Source: Escherichia coli | GTDB lineage: Bacteria > Pseudomonadota > Gammaproteobacteria > Enterobacterales > Enterobacteriaceae | Reading direction: 5' to 3' (one strand) | DNA length: 64,000 nt | NCBI RefSeq assembly: GCF_030013595.1 | Contig: NZ_CP122768.1 | Part shown: positions 872 to 21,268 of the stretch, piece after piece | How positions within the stretch are numbered: position 1 is the first letter of the stretch | Layout of the letters: every line of letters starts with the position of its first letter | The notes under the pieces: generated by a model | The model's database searches: none | Seen by the model: only the letters and a program-made list of their open reading frames with translations | Told to the model about the DNA's origin: nothing | Made by a program: the position numbers and the translations under genes

Positions 872-1056
872 ACGCCACAATTCAAACGATACCAGAACTT
901 CTTATCCAGACACGAGGCAATCAGACCGAAGTGGCGAGGAGGCTTTCCTGTGCAAGAGGAACAGTGCTCAAGTACAACAGAGACAGCAAAGGCGAGCGTC
1001 ACGCAATAGTTAACGGCGTCCTGATGGTCAAACAGGGCAAGAGGGGAAGACGATGA
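868..1056 (+). CDS. ninH: NinH-like small DNA-binding protein
   Basis: 62 aa; motif GNQTEVARRL...RGTV...HAIVNGVLMV recalled from lambda NinH; located just upstream of Q. Confidence 0.75.
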   Translation: MNATIQTIPELLIQTRGNQTEVARRLSCARGTVLKYNRDSKGERHAIVNGVLMVKQGKRGRR

Positions 1057-1676
1057 GACTCGAAAGCGTAGCTAAATTTCATTCTCCAAAAAGCCCGATG
1101 ATGAGCGACTCACCACGGGCTACAGCTTCTGACTCTCTTTCCGGTACTGATGTGATGGCTGCTATGGGGATGGCGCAATCACAAGCCGGATTCGGTATGG
1201 CTGCATTCTGCGGTAAGCATGAACTCAGCCAGAACGACAAACAAAAGGCTATCAACTATCTGATGCAATTTGCACACAAGGTATCGGGGAAATACTGTGG
1301 TGTGGCAAAGCTTGAAGGAAATACTAAGGCAAAGGTACTGCAAGTGCTCGCAACATTCGCTTATGCGGATTATTGCCGTAGTGCCGCGACGCCGGGCGCA
1401 AGATGCAGAGATTGCCACGGTACAGGCCGTGCGGTTGATATAGCCAAAACAGAGCAGTGGGGGAGAGTTGTTGAGAAAGAGTGCGGAAGATGCAAAGGTG
1501 TCGGCTATTCAAGAATGCCAGCAAGCGCCGCATATCGCGCTGTAACGATGCTAATCCCAAACCTTACTCAACCCACCTGGTCACGCACTGTTAAGCCGCT
1601 GTATGACGCTCTGGTGGTGCAATGCCACAAAGAAGAGTCAATCGCAGACAACATTTTGAATGCGGTCACACGTTAG
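1053..1676 (+). CDS. Q: Late gene antiterminator Q (lambda-type)
   Basis: 207 aa; sequence recalled as essentially lambda Q (MRLESVAKFHSPKSPMMSDSP..., zinc-binding CRDCHGTG...CGRCKG); followed by pR'-like promoter. Confidence 0.9.
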   Translation: MRLESVAKFHSPKSPMMSDSPRATASDSLSGTDVMAAMGMAQSQAGFGMAAFCGKHELSQNDKQKAINYLMQFAHKVSGKYCGVAKLEGNTKAKVLQVLATFAYADYCRSAATPGARCRDCHGTGRAVDIAKTEQWGRVVEKECGRCKGVGYSRMPASAAYRAVTMLIPNLTQPTWSRTVKPLYDALVVQCHKEESIADNILNAVTR

Positions 1677-1950: not shown

Positions 1951-2025
1951 GGGTCAGTCGTATAAAGGTCATTACGGAAGGCTGTTAACCTTCTTATCGT
2001 GGTTCGAGTCCACGCTGTCCCGCCA
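1951..2025 (+). tRNA. tRNA-like gene, anticodon GUU (Asn), with one acceptor-stem mismatch; possibly degenerate
   Basis: Hand-folded cloverleaf: anticodon stem gaagg/ccttc with loop ctgttaa, T-arm cgtgg-ttcgagt-ccacg, 3' ctgtccc-g-CCA; T:T mismatch at acceptor pair 4:69. Confidence 0.5.
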
Positions 2026-2030
2026 AATAT

Positions 2031-2106
2031 GCTGGTTTAGCTCCAATGGTAGAGCGGTCGCCTTGTAAGCGAATGGGTAGCGGTTCAAGTCCGTTAACCA
2101 GCACCA
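2031..2106 (+). tRNA. tRNA-Thr (anticodon UGU)
   Basis: Hand-folded cloverleaf: acceptor gctggtt/aaccagc, D-stem gctc/gagc, anticodon loop cttgtaa, T-loop ttcaagt, discriminator A plus CCA. Confidence 0.7.
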
Positions 2107-11799: not shown

Positions 11800-12054
11800 A
11801 TGACACACATGATCTTTCGTCATGGAGACATGAAGAAGTGGAAAGGCGTTGGATACGACTTTGAAATCGTGAAAGCCGAAGAGCTTCAGGAATATCTGGA
11901 TGCTGGCTGGTTTGCACATCCCGATGACCTTCTGAAGGATGTTGCAGAGTCAGAGCCAGAGCTAGAACCAGAGTCAGAGCCAGAAGAAAAACAGCGTAAA
12001 AAGCCTGGTCGAAAACCTAAGGCGGTAGCAGATGAACCTGACAACGAAGGGTGA
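11800..12054 (+). CDS. Hypothetical acidic small protein between coat and gp4
   Basis: ATG at 11800 preceded by GGAGA; 84 aa with [13 protein letters not shown] acidic repeat; the ORF-track start at 11752 would lie inside the terminator. Confidence 0.5.
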
Positions 12055-12532
12055 TTTAGTTCTTGCGGCATTACGTAAGCTCGGTGTGGCATCAAATGCC
12101 ACGTTAACCGATGTCGAACCGCAGTCTATGGAAGATGGCGTCAACGACCTTGAAATGATGATGGCTGAATGGCTTGGCGGTGATGCGTCACCTGGGATCA
12201 ACGTTGGCTACATTTTCGCTGATGCAGATGTCGCTCCAGATCCGGGCGATGAGCACGGCTTATCAAATAACGCTATAAATGCCGTCATTTTCAACCTTGC
12301 CTGCCGCATTGCTCCAGATTATGCGCTGGAAGCGCCAGCAAAACTTATAACCACTGCCAGATACGGGAAAGAGCGACTCGTCAAACCGTCTGCAATGGAC
12401 AGAGCAAAAGCCGCTAAATGTAAGTCCGGTTATCCAAACCGTATGCCTGTTGGTAGCGGTAACCAGTTGGCGAAGTGGAATGGTTGGAATTACTTCCACC
12501 GAAAGGAACCTTGCGATAACGGGAGCGAATAA
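12032..12532 (+). CDS. Head completion / tail accessory protein (P22 gp4-like)
   Basis: 166 aa, same length and position as P22 gp4. Confidence 0.75.
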
Positions 12533-13951
12533 ATGCCGATTCAGCAACTTCCGCTTATGAAAGGTGTCGGCAAAGACTTTCGAAACGCCGACTATATCGA
12601 CTATCTGCCAGTGAATATGCTGGCTACACCCAAAGAAATCCTGAACAGCAGCGGATATCTTCGCTCATTCCCTGGCATTGCCAAACGCTCTGATGTGAAC
12701 GGTGTATCTCGCGGCGTCGAGTACAACATGGCGCAGAATGCTGTTTATCGTGTGTGTGGTGGCAAGCTGTACAAAGGAGAAAGTGAAGTCGGTGACGTCG
12801 CCGGAAGTGGTCGCGTATCAATGGCGCATGGTCGTACATCTCAGGCGATAGGTGTTAATGGTCAACTGGTCGAGTATCGCTATGATGGCACGATTAAAAC
12901 CGTCTCAAACTGGCCTACAGATAGTGGATTCACTCAGTATGAGCTAGGTTCGGTTCGTGACATTACGCGCTTACGTGGGCGTTATGCGTGGTCAAAAGAC
13001 GGCACTGATTCATGGTTTATCACTGATCTTGAAGACGAATCGCATCCTGACCGCTACAGCGCACAATATCGTGCCGAGTCTCAGCCGGACGGCATCATCG
13101 GCATCGGCACATGGAGAGACTTCATCGTCTGCTTTGGTTCATCGACGATTGAATATTTCTCCCTGACTGGTGCAACCACCGTTGGTGCTGCTTTGTATGT
13201 CGCACAGCCATCACTGATGGTGCAGAAAGGCATTGCCGGGACTTACTGCAAAACGCCGTTTGCTGACTCGTATGCGTTCATCAGCAATCCGGCAACAGGT
13301 GCGCCGTCTGTATACATCATCGGCTCCGGTCAGGTATCACCAATCGCCAGCGCGAGCATTGAGAAAATACTACGCTCCTACACTGCTGATGAACTGGCTG
13401 AAGGCGTGATGGAATCGCTGCGGTTTGATGCGCATGAGTTGCTGATTATCCATCTTCCGCGCCATGTTCTCGTATACGACGCATCTTCAAGCGCCAATGG
13501 TCCGCAATGGTGTGTATTGAAAACAGGCCTGTATGACGATGTGTACCGCGCTATCGACTTCATTTACGAAGGCAATCAGATAACGTGCGGCGATAAGCTG
13601 GAATCGGTGATCGGGAAATTGCAGTTCGATATCAGCAGCCAGTACGACAAGCAACAGGAACACCTGCTGTTTACTCCGTTGTTCAAAGCGGATAACGCCA
13701 GATGCTTTGATCTGGAGGTGGAATCATCGACTGGTGTTGCGCAGTATGCTGACCGCCTGTTCCTCTCTGCAACCACTGACGGCATCAATTACGGTCGTGA
13801 GCAGATGATTGAGCAGAATGAACCGTTCGTTTACGACAAACGCGTTTTGTGGAAGCGAGTTGGGCGCATCAGGAAAAATGTCGGCTTCAAATTGCGCGTT
13901 ATCACTAAGTCACCTGTCACTCTGTCAGGCTGCCAGATAAGGATTGAGTAA
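12533..13951 (+). CDS. Tail accessory protein (P22 gp10-like)
   Basis: 472 aa, same length and position as P22 gp10. Confidence 0.75.
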
Positions 13952-14799
13952 TGGCTGATTCGAATCTCAATGTGCCGGTAATCATTCAGGCTACACGGCT
14001 CGACACATCAGTCCTTCCACGCAATATCTTCTCGCAGTCGTATCTGCTTTACGTTATCGCACAGGGTACTGATGTTGGTAACGTGGCGAACAAAGCCAAC
14101 GAGGCCGGACAGGGTGCTTATGACGCACAAGTCAGGAACGATGAGCAGGATGTGATTCTCGCTGACCATGAGCAGCGAATTTCTGCTGCGGAAGCAACGC
14201 TTGTTAATCATGAGGAGCGAATCAGCCAGGCAGAATCAACTCTTCAGGAACATGAAACGCGAATCGCTCAGAATGAAAGCGATATTGCGTCGCTTGATAC
14301 CAGAGTTCAGTCGCTGGAGTCGCAGGTTTCAGACCATGAATCGCGCATCGATTCTCTGGAGTATGCCACTACTCGCAAAAAGTCAGAGGTTGTTTACTCT
14401 GGCGTATCTGTAACCATTCCGACAGCGCCGACCAACCTTGTTAGCCTGCTGAAAACGCTCACGCCGTCATCAGGCTCGTTGGCACCATTCTTCGACACCG
14501 TTAACAACAAGATGATTGTGTTCAACGAGAACAAAACCTTGTTCTTCAAGCTGTCGATCGTCGGGACGTGGCCCAGCGGAACAGCCAACAGGTCAATGCA
14601 GCTAACCTTTTCCGGCTCTGTTCCTGACACACTGGTAAGCAGTCGCAACTCGGCTACAACAACCGATAACATCCTGTTAGCTACGTTCTTCAGCGTGGAT
14701 AAAGACGGCTTTCTTGCCACAAATGGCAGCACGTTAACCATCCAGTCAAATGGTGCGGCGTTTACTGCCACAACTATCAAAATCATTGCGGAGCAGTGA
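13951..14799 (+). CDS. Tail needle protein (P22 gp26-like) with C-terminal knob extension
   Basis: 282 aa; N-terminal heptad-repeat coiled coil ([41 protein letters not shown]) followed by an extra C-terminal domain. Confidence 0.75.
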
Positions 14800-15266
14800 T
14801 GGAAATAAAGCTCATCGATAATCCGGTGAAGCTTGCAGAATTCCTCAACAACCCGGCAAACACGGGAAATATCGTAGATAGTGGAGATAAATACTACATC
14901 AAGCCTGATGCGGTATACCTCGGCATCTACGAAGGATTAGTGCTGGCTGGCGTTCATGAAGTGCGTAACTTCTGGCATAGCGTTGTTGAATGCCATGCGG
15001 TGTACGACCCCGGATTCCGTGGTGAATATGCACTGCAAGGGCATCGATTATTCTGCAAGTGGCTTCTCGAAAACTCACCATTCCTTAACAGCATTACCAT
15101 GGTTCCTGACACCACGAAATACGGACGGGCAATTATCCGTTTGCTTGGCGCTACCCGTGTTGGTCACCTTGATGATGCGTACATGAGTAACGGAAAACCG
15201 GTTGGAATCACCCTCTATCAATTACCTCGTTCAAAATATGAGGAGCTATTAAATGTTAGTACTTAG
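14796..15266 (+). CDS. P22 gp14-like assembly/ejection-associated protein
   Basis: 156 aa in the position of P22 gene 14. Confidence 0.55.
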
Positions 15267-15933
15267 CGAAAGCTTCAAGAATAAATTGCTTCCCATGAAT
15301 GGGTATATGAAAGGCGGCAGCGACTCCGGATCTAAAGCCCAGGCACGCGCAACTGAAAAGGGCATCGAACTGCAGCGTGAAATGTGGCAAACGAACATGC
15401 AGAACCTTGCACCGTTCACGCCACTCGCTAAGCAGTACGTATCACAGTTGCAGAATCTTTCCTCTCTTCAGGGGCAAGGTCAGGCGCTTAACCAGTATTA
15501 CAACTCTCAGCAGTATAAAGACCTTGCAGGGCAGGCACGCTATCAGAGTCTGGCAGCAGCAGAGGCAACGGGTGGATTAGGCTCTACAGCAACAGGAAAC
15601 CAGTTAGCAGCAATCGCACCTACACTCGGTCAAAACTGGCTGTCAGGTCAGATGAACAACTACAACAATCTGGCAAACATTGGCCTTGGTGCTCTTACAG
15701 GTCAGGCAAACGCTGGGCAGAACTACGCTAACAACGTCAGCCAATTGTATCAACAGCAGGCGGCAGCATCTGCGGCGAATGCTAACCGACCATCAGGACT
15801 GCAATCAGCCTTGGGAGGTGCCATGAGCGGTGCGGCATCAGGGGCGATGATTGGCTCTGTGGTGCCAGGAATAGGTACAGCTGTTGGCGCTATTGGTGGC
15901 GGTATTATCGGTGGTCTTGGATCATTGTTTTAA
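15253..15933 (+). CDS. Ejection (internal) protein, P22 gp7-like
   Basis: 226 aa; Gln/Ala/Gly-rich low-complexity protein with Gly-rich C-terminus; syntenic with P22 gene 7. Confidence 0.7.
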   Translation: MLVLSESFKNKLLPMNGYMKGGSDSGSKAQARATEKGIELQREMWQTNMQNLAPFTPLAKQYVSQLQNLSSLQGQGQALNQYYNSQQYKDLAGQARYQSLAAAEATGGLGSTATGNQLAAIAPTLGQNWLSGQMNNYNNLANIGLGALTGQANAGQNYANNVSQLYQQQAAASAANANRPSGLQSALGGAMSGAASGAMIGSVVPGIGTAVGAIGGGIIGGLGSLF

Positions 15934-15942
15934 GGTGGGAAT

Positions 15943-17325
15943 ATGGCTAGTTGGCAACAAGGAATCAACTCAGGCGGCTTTCTTGCTGGTATCGGTGGGC
16001 AAAACTCAAATGCGCCAAAGGCAAGTGATGTAAGTGAGGCGTTGGCCTATATTCGCCAGAACAACGAAATGGAGCGCTCAGGTCGCAATAACATCGGCCT
16101 TCAGGCGTTGCAGGGGCTTGGTAGTGTCGCTCAAACATATCAAGCCGCAAAGCAACAGGAATTCCAAAAAGAATATGCGGCAGCCATCCAGTCAGGTGAT
16201 CGGCAGCAGGTGCGAGATCTGATGACCAAATATCCTGGTCAATTAGAGAAGATTCAGTCTGGTATGAAGTGGGCAGACGAAGACCAGCGCAATTCTATCG
16301 GCACCTTAGCGGCTGGCGCACGCCTTGCGTCATCGTCTCCAGAAGCAATGCAATCATGGCTGCAAAACAACGCCAAGGAACTGGCGCGCGTCGGTGTTGA
16401 CCCTAACAGCGTTGCTCAGATGTATCAGCAAAACCCTTCAGGATTTGGTGAGTTTGTTGATCACCTTGGAATGGCTGCTCTTGGTCCGATTGATTACTTC
16501 AATGTTCAGGACAAGATGGCTGGTCGTGAAATTGACCGAGGCAAACTGGCAGAGACAATCCGCAGCAATCAGGCTGGCGAGGCGCTAACAGCACGAGGCC
16601 AGAACATCACGATGCGCGGTCAGGACTTATCTGCTTCTACTGCGCGACGAGGTCAGGATTTGGCAATGCAGCGAGCGTCAACAAGACGAATCGCTGGGAA
16701 TGATGAGCGTACAGTTCAGTTATCAGATGGCAGAACTGTAACGGTAGGCGGGAAGCTTCACGGCGCTGGGGCTAATGCGTTCTACGAAGGCATCGACAAC
16801 GAGGGGAATATGGTTCGCGTCCCTGCTGGCTCTATTGCCGCTCCGGCTACATCGGCAGCAAGCGCGCAGAATTACGCAATGAAGAAAGATCTTGATGCAA
16901 TTTCTGGTGCATCAATTGACGATCTTGGCTTCATGACTGGCATTACAGGCTCTTCAGGTTCTCCTGCTCTTGGTGCAGATATTCGTAGCCGTGCATCTGG
17001 TGGTGATCAGAGGAAACTATACAACGCTGCACAGCGAATCCAAGGAAAGATGCAGAATCAGGGCATTGCAGCAGCCAGAGACATGGGGGCATCCGGTATC
17101 AACACCGTTGCAGAAGCAAAGATGTATTTTCAAGGTATGCCACAGGTTGATTTCTCAAGCCCTGAAGCACTGCAACAATCAATGCGCGACATTCAGCAAT
17201 ATACCGACAATTACAACCAGCAATATAACGTTAATGTTGGTAAATCTCAGCGGCAGCAATCTCAACCTGCACAGGTATCACAGCCAGCAGCCAGCAGTAA
17301 CTTTTCTTCACTATGGGGTGATTAA
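15943..17325 (+). CDS. Ejection protein, P22 gp20-like
   Basis: 460 aa; position and composition as P22 gene 20. Confidence 0.7.
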
Positions 17326-19430
17326 TGGCTAAAGCATGGAAAGATGTTATCGCTTCTCCACAGTATCAGGCGTTAGCACCAGAACAAAAAGCGCAGGCTC
17401 AGGAGCAATACTTCAATGAAGTCGTGGCCCCGCAAGCCGGAGAAAGTGTAGAGCAGGCTAAGCAGGCTTTTTATGCTGCCTATCCACTACCATCAACGAA
17501 TGAAATAGACCGATACCAATCAGCAACTCAAAATATTCAACATACATCATCTGATAATTCTCTTGCGTCAGGGTATGCAAAGTTAGCTACTCAGCAAAGA
17601 GAGGGGCTTGAGCGTTCAGCAGAACAGGGAGCCAGTCTTGGGGCTGCGATGCGCGATGCTATAACAGGCGAAAGCCGAATGACTCCAGAGATGGAGAGAC
17701 TGCAAAATGTCGACCTTGCCCCAGAGTTAACCTCACTCAGCATGGATGCTCTAAAAGCTCGATGGTCTCAACTTTTCGGCTCTGACGCATCTCAGGAAAA
17801 GATTCTTCAGAGCATGGGAGCGAAATTAAGGCAGGATGAGAAGGGGAACACTATCGTTTCCCTGCCATCCGGTGATTATGCTCTGAACAAGCCGGGTTTA
17901 TCGCCGCAAGACGTGGCATCGTTTCTGGCTAATGCGCTGGCGTTTACACCAGCGGGCAGGGCTGGAACGGTGCTTGGTGCCATAGGAAAATCAGCAGCTA
18001 CAGATTTAGCACTACAGGGAGCCACCAGCCTTGCTGGTGGAGAAGATATTGATCCGTTACAAACGGTAATTTCTGCTGGCATTGGTGGTATTGGTAAGGG
18101 GCTGGAAAATACAGCGAGTGCGGTTTCGAGGGCTGTTCGTGGTGATATGTCGCCTGAAGCAAAGGCTGCTGTCGACTTTGCATCGGAAAGAAATCTGCCG
18201 TTAATGACCAGTGACATGCTGAAAGATAAAACCTTTATGCAGAGTCAGGCTCAGACATTAGGCGAAAGAGTTCCTTTTTTTGGAACCGGTAAGAATCGGC
18301 TGAATCAACAACAAGCACGAGAAAATTTAGTCAGAACATTTAGCGATGGTCTGGGTGGTATTTCTGATAAACAGCTTTATGAATCTGCGACTAAAGGGCA
18401 ACAAAAATTCATTGAGGCAGCAGGAAAGCGATATAACCGCATAATTGACGCTATGGGGGATACCCCTGTCGATCTCTCAAACACGGTAAAAGCTATCGAC
18501 AATCAGATTGCCGTGTTAAGCCGCCCGGGCAAATCTCAGGATAGAGCCGCGGTAAAAGTCTTGCAGCAATTTAAAGACGATATCACCAGCGGGCCAAATG
18601 ACCTGCGTCTGGCGAGGGAAAACAGAACCGATCTTCGAAAGCGATTTATGGCGTCATCTGACACTGTTGATAAAGATACGCTCCAGAAAGCCAGCGATAT
18701 TATCTACAAGGCATATACGGCGGATATGAAAAAAGCCGTAGCCAAAAATCTTGGAGCAGACGAAGCCATTAATATGGCAAGGGTTGATCGCTCATGGTCT
18801 AAATTCAATGACATGATGGGAAGAACGCGCGTTCAAAAGGCAATAGCCAGCGGCAAGGCCACGCCTGAGGATGTAACAAAACTCGTTTTTAGCCAAAGCC
18901 CATCAGAACGTTCTCAGCTTTACAGGCTTCTGGATGACAATGGTAGGCAAAACGCACGAGCAGCCATAGTTCAGAATGCTGTAGATAAGGCGACTGATCC
19001 GTCTGGAAATATCAGTGTTGAGAAGTTTATTAATGCGTTACACCGGAACAGGAAGCAATCAGCAACTTTCTTTAAAGGCGTACATGGAAAGGAACTGGAC
19101 GGCGTTATTAAATACCTCAACGATACAAGACACGCGGCAAAAGCGAACGTTCAAAACTTAAATGGTCAGCAGCTTTATGGATTGTTAGTTGGTGGTGGCA
19201 TCATAAACGCAGCAGTATTAGCGGGGATGCTAAAAACGGCTGCGTTTGTTGTTCCTGCTGCTGGTGCCGTAGGCGGAGCAGCGAAGGCATACGAAAGCCC
19301 TGTTATACGAAATGCCTTGTTACGTCTGGCAAATACGCCAAAAGGTAGCACAGCATATGACAGAGCGATCAGTACGGTCACACAATCGCTCACCAGAGTC
19401 GCACAGGCATCACAAAAAGAAGCTCAATAA
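17325..19430 (+). CDS. Ejection protein, P22 gp16-like (longer than I recall for P22)
   Basis: 701 aa; last gene of the rightward virion operon. Confidence 0.7.
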   Translation: MAKAWKDVIASPQYQALAPEQKAQAQEQYFNEVVAPQAGESVEQAKQAFYAAYPLPSTNEIDRYQSATQNIQHTSSDNSLASGYAKLATQQREGLERSAEQGASLGAAMRDAITGESRMTPEMERLQNVDLAPELTSLSMDALKARWSQLFGSDASQEKILQSMGAKLRQDEKGNTIVSLPSGDYALNKPGLSPQDVASFLANALAFTPAGRAGTVLGAIGKSAATDLALQGATSLAGGEDIDPLQTVISAGIGGIGKGLENTASAVSRAVRGDMSPEAKAAVDFASERNLPLMTSDMLKDKTFMQSQAQTLGERVPFFGTGKNRLNQQQARENLVRTFSDGLGGISDKQLYESATKGQQKFIEAAGKRYNRIIDAMGDTPVDLSNTVKAIDNQIAVLSRPGKSQDRAAVKVLQQFKDDITSGPNDLRLARENRTDLRKRFMASSDTVDKDTLQKASDIIYKAYTADMKKAVAKNLGADEAINMARVDRSWSKFNDMMGRTRVQKAIASGKATPEDVTKLVFSQSPSERSQLYRLLDDNGRQNARAAIVQNAVDKATDPSGNISVEKFINALHRNRKQSATFFKGVHGKELDGVIKYLNDTRHAAKANVQNLNGQQLYGLLVGGGIINAAVLAGMLKTAAFVVPAAGAVGGAAKAYESPVIRNALLRLANTPKGSTAYDRAISTVTQSLTRVAQASQKEAQ

Positions 19431-19448
19431 CTGGTTAGCCATGGATGG

Positions 19449-19637
19449 TTATTTCCTTAGCACATGAAACAATGTTTGCTTTAATTCCACCCATACAATT
19501 ATGACCACTATAGACAGACAAAAGAAACTGAATGCATTGGCATCACGATCGAAACCTTCTCCGGCACTAAATCCGTAAAAGGTCATAAAAAATATAAAAA
19601 TTGCGCACTTTGCAACGTTTACAAATTTTTTCTTCAC
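19449..19637 (-). CDS. Hypothetical small membrane protein (moron, antisense to late operon)
   Basis: 62 aa, two predicted hydrophobic helices, low GC; lies where P22 carries sieA. Confidence 0.4.
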   Translation of the reverse strand: MKKKFVNVAKCAIFIFFMTFYGFSAGEGFDRDANAFSFFCLSIVVIIVWVELKQTLFHVLRK

Positions 19638-20011
19638 ACCAACCTCCTTAGTTTTGCTCAGGATACCAGATGATACTTTATTGGTGGAGTGGTGTGTGAA
19701 AACGTGTCAACGACAAACCATCCACAACTTGGACGAATGATTTAGCAAAAAGTGCTATTTTTGGTGTTTAGTGTCATAGAAAAGTGAATAGCTCACTTTT
19801 CAACATTGCATGAAACTTGCAGGAAATGTGACATTACCTTATAGGTAATTTCGGCGAAAATGCAGTAAATGTGAAACGTAATGGTTTAAACATGTCGCTA
19901 AAGTGGTTGTAAGTTAGCCTCCGAAGGATTGCTGATAGCTTTGTTATAGTATTAAATGACATTTGACATAGTTGGATACTTAGCTGTGGCTATCAAGATG
20001 GAGGTGTGTTC

Positions 20012-20455
20012 ATGCTTACTTGTTTTGATGTCGCCGACTACTTCCTGTCGCGGTGTGACGAGGATAGCGGTGACACAATCTCTAATTTAAAATTACAAAA
20101 GCTTGTTTACTATGCTCAGGGGTTTTCATTGGCGTTGCTTGGTGAGCCTCTTTTTCAGAATAAGATGGAAGCTTGGATGCATGGCCCTGTTGTCCCTGAG
20201 CTTTATCGCCGTTATAAACAATATGGTAATGGAGCTATCCCTTCTCCAGAGTCTTTTGATGCTGAAAAATTCAGCGAAGAACAGTTAGAGCTATTAGAAG
20301 AAGTCTGGGATGTTTTTGGGCAATTTTCTGCCTGGAAACTGAGGAACATGACACACGAAGAGTCACCATGGAGATCAAACTATATTGAGGGTGTTGGTGG
20401 TTCTGAAATTAGCTCTAAGGAGATGGCAGAGTACTTTGCAACTCGGATTAACTAA
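20012..20455 (+). CDS. DUF4065 / Panacea-domain protein (putative antitoxin, PanA/SocA-like)
   Basis: Motif LKLQKLVYYAQGFSLALLGEPLF...EAWMHGPVVPELYRRYKQYG typical of DUF4065 phage-associated proteins; GGAGG 7 nt upstream of ATG 20012 (the ORF track uses GTG 20006). Confidence 0.65.
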   Translation: MLTCFDVADYFLSRCDEDSGDTISNLKLQKLVYYAQGFSLALLGEPLFQNKMEAWMHGPVVPELYRRYKQYGNGAIPSPESFDAEKFSEEQLELLEEVWDVFGQFSAWKLRNMTHEESPWRSNYIEGVGGSEISSKEMAEYFATRIN

Positions 20456-20459
20456 CGAG

Positions 20460-20879
20460 ATGGCAAGAAAATCTAAAAGGATTATCCCCCCTGCTGAATC
20501 TACAGGTAAGTTAAAGTTAGGGCCGCAGTCAGGGGGGAATTCAGATCAAAAGAAACCGAAATTTTCATTCTGTTACATCCAAAGCTCTCACTGCATAACG
20601 AAATGCCAAAAAGATGAGAAAGCTGGCTTAGCTGATAAATTATACAGATTAAGTCAACTAACATGGGCAGAGATTAAGCAGCAAGGTAGGCATAAGCTTG
20701 GATTTGAGAAGATTGCAAGGGGTGCAATTAAAGCTGGTATCCCCGGTCATATAACGGAAGACGTAGATCATTTCTTGGCTTTTAGATTTGATGATTTGAA
20801 AGCCATGGTTGGTTATCGTCTTGGATCGACATTTTTTGTTATATGGCTTGATAGAGAGTTCAACCTATACAAGCACTAA
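20460..20879 (+). CDS. Uncharacterised partner protein of the Panacea-like gene (candidate toxin/effector)
   Basis: ATG 4 nt after upstream stop; 139 aa, basic N-terminus, Cys cluster (CYIQSSHCITKC), C-terminal GYRLGSTFFVIWLDREFNLYKH weakly like RelE/ParE-type toxin C-termini; followed by strong terminator. Confidence 0.5.
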   Translation: MARKSKRIIPPAESTGKLKLGPQSGGNSDQKKPKFSFCYIQSSHCITKCQKDEKAGLADKLYRLSQLTWAEIKQQGRHKLGFEKIARGAIKAGIPGHITEDVDHFLAFRFDDLKAMVGYRLGSTFFVIWLDREFNLYKH

Positions 20880-20908
20880 TAAAACCCACCGTCAGGTGGG
20901 TTTTTTTG
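20879..20908. terminator. Strong, probably bidirectional intrinsic terminator
   Basis: Hairpin acccacc-gtca-ggtgggt flanked by an A-run upstream and a T-run downstream; sits between convergent genes. Confidence 0.8.
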
Positions 20909-20923
20909 TTGGAGATAAAATGG

Positions 20924-21127
20924 TTAACCAAATCGATCCTTAAAGCGTCTATCGCTGTTGCGTCTCTCCATTTTACTGTTGCAGTACGGACAAAGATGCT
21001 GTTTCTTTCCATCGATAGTCCATGTGAAGTACTTTTTCTTAAATCCAGCACCACAGATATCGCAACTTCTTGGTTTAAACATACTGGCTATGAAGATAAG
21101 AACAACAAATCCTATGATCCATTCCAT
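20924..21127 (-). CDS. Hypothetical small membrane-anchored zinc-ribbon protein
   Basis: 67 aa; N-terminal hydrophobic helix then CDICG...CPYC (CxxC...CxxC); low GC. Confidence 0.45.
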   Translation of the reverse strand: MEWIIGFVVLIFIASMFKPRSCDICGAGFKKKYFTWTIDGKKQHLCPYCNSKMERRNSDRRFKDRFG

Positions 21128-21268
21128 ATCATGTACCTGTTTTAACTTTATTTTTTGATTTTTAGGGATTAATCAGAAACTTTATCTTGCGATTAAGCAA
21201 AGCTACTAGCTAACAAAAGAGTGCGTATACAATCAATCGTTTCACATCAACCTCAACAAGGAGAAATC

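Follow-up and report, generated by a model that had tools for sequence, protein, structure and literature searches.

A tail needle gene of the Sf6 subtype in a P22-like prophage at the argW tRNA gene of Escherichia coli

The trimeric needle formed by gp26 of phage P22 plugs the channel of the tail hub and keeps the DNA inside the virion; it projects past the tailspikes and should be the first part to reach the outer membrane (PMC3741392). At infection, the needle leaves the virion, and the ejection proteins and the DNA exit afterwards (PMC9728967, PMC3741392). Shafts of 11 heptads have been reported for both the Sf6 and the P22 needle, and the tip types of the two phages are described as 'completely different' (PMC3741392). 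The knob of Sf6 comprises residues 140-282, and its fold has been likened to that of PRD1 P5 and TNF-type trimers; it contacts L-glutamate through E146, K200, S248, D250, L255 and K277 and phosphate through the triad S231-R232-N233 (PMC3741392). As of 2013, this knob type had been found only in P22-like phages of Escherichia and Shigella, with a knob divergence of at most 4.9% (PMC3741392).

P22-like needles fall into two tip types, exchanged as cassettes where the coiled coil ends, so that a length difference of about 50 aa can conceal a complete domain replacement. Here, we analysed a window of 64,000 nucleotides of the E. coli contig NZ_CP122768.1 (assembly GCF_030013595.1), in which the gene at 13951..14799 (+) almost certainly encodes the Sf6-type knobbed tail needle of a P22-like temperate podophage of the Sf6 subtype, integrated as a prophage at argW. 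The protein is already known and already annotated, and it belongs to a structurally and functionally characterised family: two crystal structures, a whole-tail cryo-EM model and a dedicated functional study exist for the needle subtype that this prophage is confirmed to carry. The useful general point is the corrected domain arithmetic; beyond this, the analysis adds little to a correct annotation. It covers what the protein is, where its domains begin and end, the heptad register, predicted fold, ligand-residue conservation, operon position and purifying selection.

Identity of the needle protein

The open reading frame begins with ATG, encodes 282 aa and is the sole long one at its position in the ORF listing. 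Its start shares one base with the stop of the upstream 472-aa gene (TAATG), and its TGA stop overlaps the ATG of the downstream gene (TGATG); the Sf6 genes 8, 9 and 10 show both of these overlaps as well. In BLASTP, the product is identical to the Sf6 gene 9 protein, the prototype among knobbed needles, at 274 of 282 positions (97%), without a gap over all 282 residues, and the two share their length, three-domain layout, neighbouring genes and ligand-contact residues (Sf6 knob, 3RWN). The Pfam family PF16532, 'Sf6-type phage tail needle knob' (Phage_tail_NK), is matched over profile positions 1-175 of 175 with 383 bits (E=1.9e-115; gathering score 27 bits), and the PHROGs family phrog_1030, 'tail needle knob', with E=4.5e-134. 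No other Pfam match in the protein rises above threshold, the remainder being sub-threshold coiled-coil noise. We therefore assign the gene as the homologue of Sf6 gene 9 and P22 gene 26.

Relative to Sf6 gene 9, the whole gene has a dN/dS of 0.07 and its knob part one of 0.05, which indicates that the gene is under purifying selection; the first value, together with the Pfam and PHROG matches, argues against a chance open reading frame. Among the PDB sequences (phmmer), residues 130-282 match the knobs of Sf6 (3RWN, E=6e-90) and of the HS1 needle from an E. coli prophage (4K6B, E=1.8e-89), aligning end to end with both 161-residue constructs and with 150 of 153 residues identical to the 3RWN construct, whereas residues 1-144 match the P22 gp26 structures (2POH, 3C9I, 4ZXQ and others) with E of about 1e-43. 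Nothing in the sequence contradicts an Sf6-type needle.

The protein is also common in E. coli. The identical 282-aa sequence, deposited in NCBI, UniRef and ENA, bears the name 'tail needle knob protein [Escherichia coli]' and occurs on 50 contigs; the 90%-identity cluster that contains it has 3620 members. Of 5426 complete E. coli genomes, 473 contain at least 80% of the needle gene, under the PGAP name 'tail needle knob protein'. The same 90%-identity cluster also lists DUF2824 proteins of 153-159 aa, that is, the product of the neighbouring gene, which looks like an artefact of database clustering.

Plug, shaft and knob

A preliminary description of this DNA had compared the 282 aa of the needle with about 233 aa in P22. 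The comparison is sound: 2POH contains 233 residues, and the needle coding sequences of HK620 and of Salmonella phage 118970_sal4 measure 702 bp; since P22-type needles are thus 233 aa long, the difference is real. The same description had also proposed an Sf6-type C-terminal knob on a gp26-like needle, and this is borne out by the identity to Sf6 gp9, the matched knob crystal structures and the structural model described below. It had, however, placed the knob in an extra 50-60 aa or so after the coiled coil, and on this point the alignments disagree, as the region that is not shared with P22 begins around residue 138-140 and spans about 143 aa.

By BLASTP, the needle is 58% identical to the P22-type needle over residues 1-137, and nothing is aligned from residue 138 on. 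A multiple alignment of the Sf6, HK620 and P22-type needles contains no conserved block past the shaft; there is no alignment to the HK620 needle beyond residue 148, and at the DNA level the similarity of the gene to that of HK620 stops at nucleotide 224. Because only residues 1-137 align to the P22-type needle and residues 130-282 align to the knob constructs, the knob is about 143 aa long and, as judged by these alignments, replaces the P22 tip, an unrelated stretch of about 95 aa, with a net gain of 49 aa. This net gain accounts for the earlier picture of an added 50-60 aa. The alignment with P22-type and Sf6 needles that had been suggested as a check hence supports the presence of an unshared domain, but as a substitute for the P22 tip and not as an addition to it.

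The alternative, a complete P22 gp26 architecture that retains the P22-type tip and carries a short terminal domain of 50-60 aa, would fit the net length difference and the homology of the N-terminal 137 residues to gp26. It has practically no chance of being right, as the residues from 138 onward do not align to the P22-type needle, no conserved block follows the shaft, and residues 130-282 cover the Sf6 and HS1 knob constructs from end to end. A literal extension of 50-60 aa is ruled out by both the pairwise and the multiple alignments with the P22-type and HK620 needles. Nor is there homology to gp26 residues of about 140-233, which places the needle outside the P22-type tip subtype (the P22, HK620 and epsilon34 branches). 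The likeness to P22 gp26 (2POH, 3C9I) lies in the homologous plug and shaft, the gene position and the DNA-retaining role of the plug; the difference lies in the P22 tip, which has no sequence similarity to the 143-aa knob found here.

With the knob taken as a replacement, three domains can be delimited. The N-terminal domain (aa 1-62; 13951..14136, +) attaches the needle to the tail hub and closes off the channel through which the DNA exits, a role known from published work (PMC3741392, PMC9728967). Residues 1-73 are nearly invariant among the Sf6, HK620 and P22-type needles, the 62-residue needle chain of 8EAP matches residues 3-64 (E=1.7e-27), and dN relative to Sf6 is 0 across aa 1-62.

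The coiled-coil shaft (aa 63-139; 14137..14367, +) has a continuous heptad register throughout, without a break from residue 70 to 136 and with L, I or V at position a (residues 70, 77, 84, 91, 98, 105, 112, 119, 126 and 133), and its strongest hydrophobicity periodicity is a period of 7. The resulting 11 heptads equal the Sf6 and P22 count. The HS1 needle, the knob of which is nearly identical and carries an Ala at the equivalent of Sf6 Ser270 as here, differs in having a shaft of 16 heptads; a long shaft of the HS1 type is thus ruled out for this needle, and the long-shaft relatives of phages Gally and JEP4 show a 35-aa insertion when aligned to it. Within the shaft heptads (14137-14367), an 'xxHExRI' motif recurs, with His at the core d position (H73, H87, H101 and H129). 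Some of these d-position histidines are common to P22-type needles, and buried histidines might make the stability of the shaft sensitive to pH.

The knob (aa 140-282; 14368..14796, +) folds as a TNF-like jelly roll of the kind seen in 3RWN and 4K6B, according to the structural model. An AlphaFold2 monomer model built from a 13-sequence alignment (mean pLDDT 86) has a single long helix from residue 29 to 140 and, after it, a beta sandwich. In Foldseek, the knob of the model superposes on 3RWN and 4K6B with a TM score of 0.93 and an rmsd of 1.6 A, and the N-terminal half of the model superposes on P22 gp26 1-140 with a TM score of 0.83. After these, the best-scoring folds are those of PRD1 P5 and the TNF/C1q family (E about 5e-5 to 1e-3), with which the knob shares the class of trimeric jelly rolls; at 7-15% sequence identity and a query-normalised TM score of 0.26-0.37, this is a likeness of fold only and not membership of a family. 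From the near-identity to the crystal structures, the needle is predicted to be a homotrimer, a trimeric coiled-coil fibre.

Ligand sites and the role of the knob

All nine published contact residues for L-glutamate and phosphate (9/9) are present at the same positions in the needle. In an alignment of 13 knob proteins from P22-like phages, Murrayvirus, Gofduovirus, T4-like phages, Ackermannviridae and jumbo phages, no variation occurs at E146, K200, R232 and S248, and hardly any at D250. By its near-identity to the crystallised knobs, the trimer probably binds three L-glutamate molecules. The eight differences from Sf6 (window residue first) are S92R, E100D, A113S, S131T, S135A, S176T, I189V and A270S; all are conservative, and none of them falls on a ligand-contact residue. 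Three of the eight lie in the knob, a divergence of 2.1%, which is inside the published range of up to 4.9%. The needle was considered as an unusual allele and this reading was dropped, given the conservative changes, the low knob divergence, the dN/dS of 0.07 and the prior deposition of the exact protein.

Knobs of this type extend well beyond the range described in 2013. Full-length knobbed needles occur in P22-like phages of Salmonella (S9-5 and ABTNLsp11242, 61% identity), Aeromonas (4_4512, 56%), Shewanella (ZP9, 49%) and Klebsiella (phiKp_30, 97%), so the restriction to Escherichia and Shigella and the 4.9% limit are outdated. More distantly, proteins of T4-like, Ackermannviridae and jumbo phages (Citrobacter phage Margaery, Aeromonas phage 31, Salmonella phage SS9 and E. 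coli phage PBECO4) carry a C-terminal knob of the PF16532 type at 27-50% identity, in which the glutamate contacts E146, K200 and S248 do not vary; they differ from the needle in lacking a gp26-type plug or shaft and in their genomic context.

What the knob does has been addressed in P22. A P22 chimera with the HS1 knob is efficient on Salmonella, and truncated or foldon-tipped needles still yield viable P22 in the laboratory; an altered tip slows potassium efflux, that is, DNA delivery (PMC3741392). The authors of that study concluded that the tip aids genome delivery kinetically and probably does not confer host specificity, leaving a specific role in Shigella possible (PMC3741392). In Sf6, all host-range expansion mutations are in the tailspike and none in the needle, and OmpC binding has been placed at the tailspike's distal tip.

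We propose the following scheme, in which the trimer state, plug function, ligand binding, needle release and kinetic effect are taken from published work on Sf6, HS1 and P22. Three copies of the needle would assemble into a fibre, with residues 1-62 inserted in the hexameric hub of the gp10-like protein, thus plugging the portal channel and retaining the DNA. Residues 63-139 would form the trimeric coiled-coil shaft of 11 heptads, and residues 140-282 would form the trimeric jelly-roll knob at the distal tip, with three L-glutamates buried at the subunit interfaces and an apical phosphate site. During infection, the tailspikes would digest the O-antigen and the tip of the needle would reach the outer membrane; expulsion of the needle would then open the channel for the gp7-, gp20- and gp16-like ejection proteins and the DNA. 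The knob may tune the kinetics of needle release and DNA delivery, and would not choose the host.

A different reading is that the knob is a receptor-binding domain, recognising a secondary receptor on E. coli or Shigella and thereby setting host specificity, or that it is an obligatory trigger of DNA release. Its fold is common to the receptor-binding knobs of PRD1 P5 and the TNF family, the needle extends past the tailspikes and should contact the outer membrane first, the knob type was seen in 2013 in P22-like phages of Escherichia and Shigella only, and a specific function in Sf6 infection of Shigella is allowed for by the authors of PMC3741392. Against this, P22 with the HS1 knob infects Salmonella efficiently, virions with foldon-tipped needles are functional, the Sf6 host-range mutations and OmpC binding are assigned to the tailspike, and phages recorded on Klebsiella, Salmonella, Aeromonas and Shewanella have knobbed needles that are related or nearly identical; we consider this reading improbable. 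The preliminary description had raised two roles for the knob in hedged form. Its suggestion of envelope penetration, or else a part in DNA-delivery kinetics, is favoured by the published data, whereas receptor sensing, taken as host specificity, finds no support in published experiments.

A narrower version would give the knob a host-specific job in E. coli or Shigella, such as envelope sensing or an L-glutamate-dependent trigger, that the P22/Salmonella chimeras could not reveal. Nothing that we computed points there, and we hold it to be slightly less probable still; if it were true, the knob substitutions S176, I189 and A270 would mark an E. coli-adapted variant. A role in the kinetics of delivery is the reading that we retain for the knob.

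The late operon and its prophage

The needle gene is flanked by the gp10-like hub gene on one side and the gp14-like gene on the other, and the genes for the ejection proteins follow downstream. The order gp4-gp10-needle-gp14-gp7-gp20-gp16 is the same as in Sf6, and the position of the needle gene is also the same in HK620 and in an annotated E. coli prophage. The head-to-tail adaptor gene (gp4-like; 12032..12532, +) matches PF11650 P22_Tail-4 (E=3e-58). It is followed by the gp10-like gene (12533..13951, +; PF11134 Phage_stabilise, E=5e-302), which occupies the position of Sf6 gene 8 and encodes the hub, a hexamer plugged by the needle; this gene is translationally coupled to the needle gene. 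Downstream, at the position of Sf6 gene 10, is the gp14-like gene (14796..15266, +; PF11039 DUF2824, E=2.6e-65), the true start of which is probably the ATG at 14799 that overlaps the needle stop.

Three ejection proteins follow on the same strand. The gp7-like protein (15253-15933, +) matches PF25688 P22_gp7 (E=8e-92) and the gp20-like protein (15943-17325, +) matches PF16928 Inj_translocase (E=2e-68). The gp16-like protein of 701 aa (17325-19430, +) is assigned by the position of Sf6 gene 13 only, having no Pfam match at E<=0.001, and it is longer than the 665-aa product of Sf6 gene 13. The locus departs from Sf6 in two further respects: the host is E. coli and not Shigella flexneri, and the head genes of the window have P22-like and not Sf6-like lengths.

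The tailspike gene (23377..25272, +) matches PF09008 Head_binding over residues 1-113 (E=5.5e-67), and the N-terminal 170-190 aa of its product match the Sf6 and P22 tailspike chains, that is, their head-binding domain. No solved structure is matched in sequence by the receptor-binding body, which spans about 440 aa. In the assembled tail, the needle is ringed by six tailspike trimers.

An integrase-sized open reading frame of 396 aa (25349-26539, -) lies at the integrase position and adjoins tRNA-Arg(CCT) (26665-26739, -), the attachment site of the prophage; the same site is annotated for Sf6 and HK620 and is reported as argW for Kapi1. The E. coli chromosome adjoins the tRNA directly on its right, with the fadJ/fadI/fadL region at 99.8% identity. 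The closest phage genomes are those of the E. coli Lederbergvirus-type phages APC_JM3.2, HZ41, Louie and IME10, to which half of the first 25 kb is about 95% identical; the prophage in the window is a typical mosaic.

Many E. coli genomes have just a small P22-like remnant containing the needle gene (PMC3741392), and the gene could likewise be a non-functional passenger of a decaying prophage from which no needle is made. In keeping with this, the window begins inside the prophage, and the left end, with the regulatory and replication region, falls outside it. The late operon is nevertheless unbroken in the window, with terminase, portal, scaffold, coat, gp4, gp10, needle, gp14, the three ejection proteins, tailspike and the integrase-position frame all full-length and with tRNA-Arg adjoining; the equivalent stretch of a related prophage has annotated lysis genes and an annotated antiterminator, and the dN/dS relative to Sf6 speaks for maintained selection. 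A decaying passenger is accordingly an unlikely explanation. An isolated P22-like remnant is rejected within the window, where the late operon, the tailspike, the integrase-position frame and the tRNA-Arg site are all present.

In the related prophage of E. coli DLL7555, a gene with a NUMOD4 domain that resembles homing endonucleases (13463-14008) is located between the gp10-like and needle genes. The window differs in having no NUMOD4 gene, and its gp10-like and needle genes overlap directly. Inside the prophage of the window, genes for tRNA-Asn(GTT) and tRNA-Thr(TGT) stand side by side at 1951-2106 (+). The pair is located between an open reading frame (1053..1676) and the lysis genes, and this frame takes the position of the antiterminator in the DLL7555 prophage.

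The interval between the gp16-like gene and the tailspike (19430-23280) is an accessory region similar to P22 immI. Its immI-like genes encode an Mnt-like Arc/RHH protein (21778..22029, -), an Arc-like protein (22107..22280, +) and the antirepressor Ant (22347..23276, +). Three small open reading frames without an assigned function are also present: a hydrophobic one of 62 aa (19449..19637, -), one of 67 aa with a hydrophobic N-terminus and CxxC...CxxC cysteine pairs (20924..21127, -), and one of 105 aa with a signal-peptide-like N-terminus (21464..21781, -). At 20006-20879 (+), a 149-aa frame with a SocA/Panacea antitoxin domain (PF13274, E=1.9e-24) is followed by an overlapping frame of about 139 aa (phrog_8366), which weakly matches the C-terminal part of the PADLOC NsnC model (E=9e-6). 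These two genes, between the gp16-like gene and immI, may constitute a PanA-type toxin-antitoxin or defence module, and a Panacea gene is annotated at the equivalent place (20483-20932) in the DLL7555 prophage.
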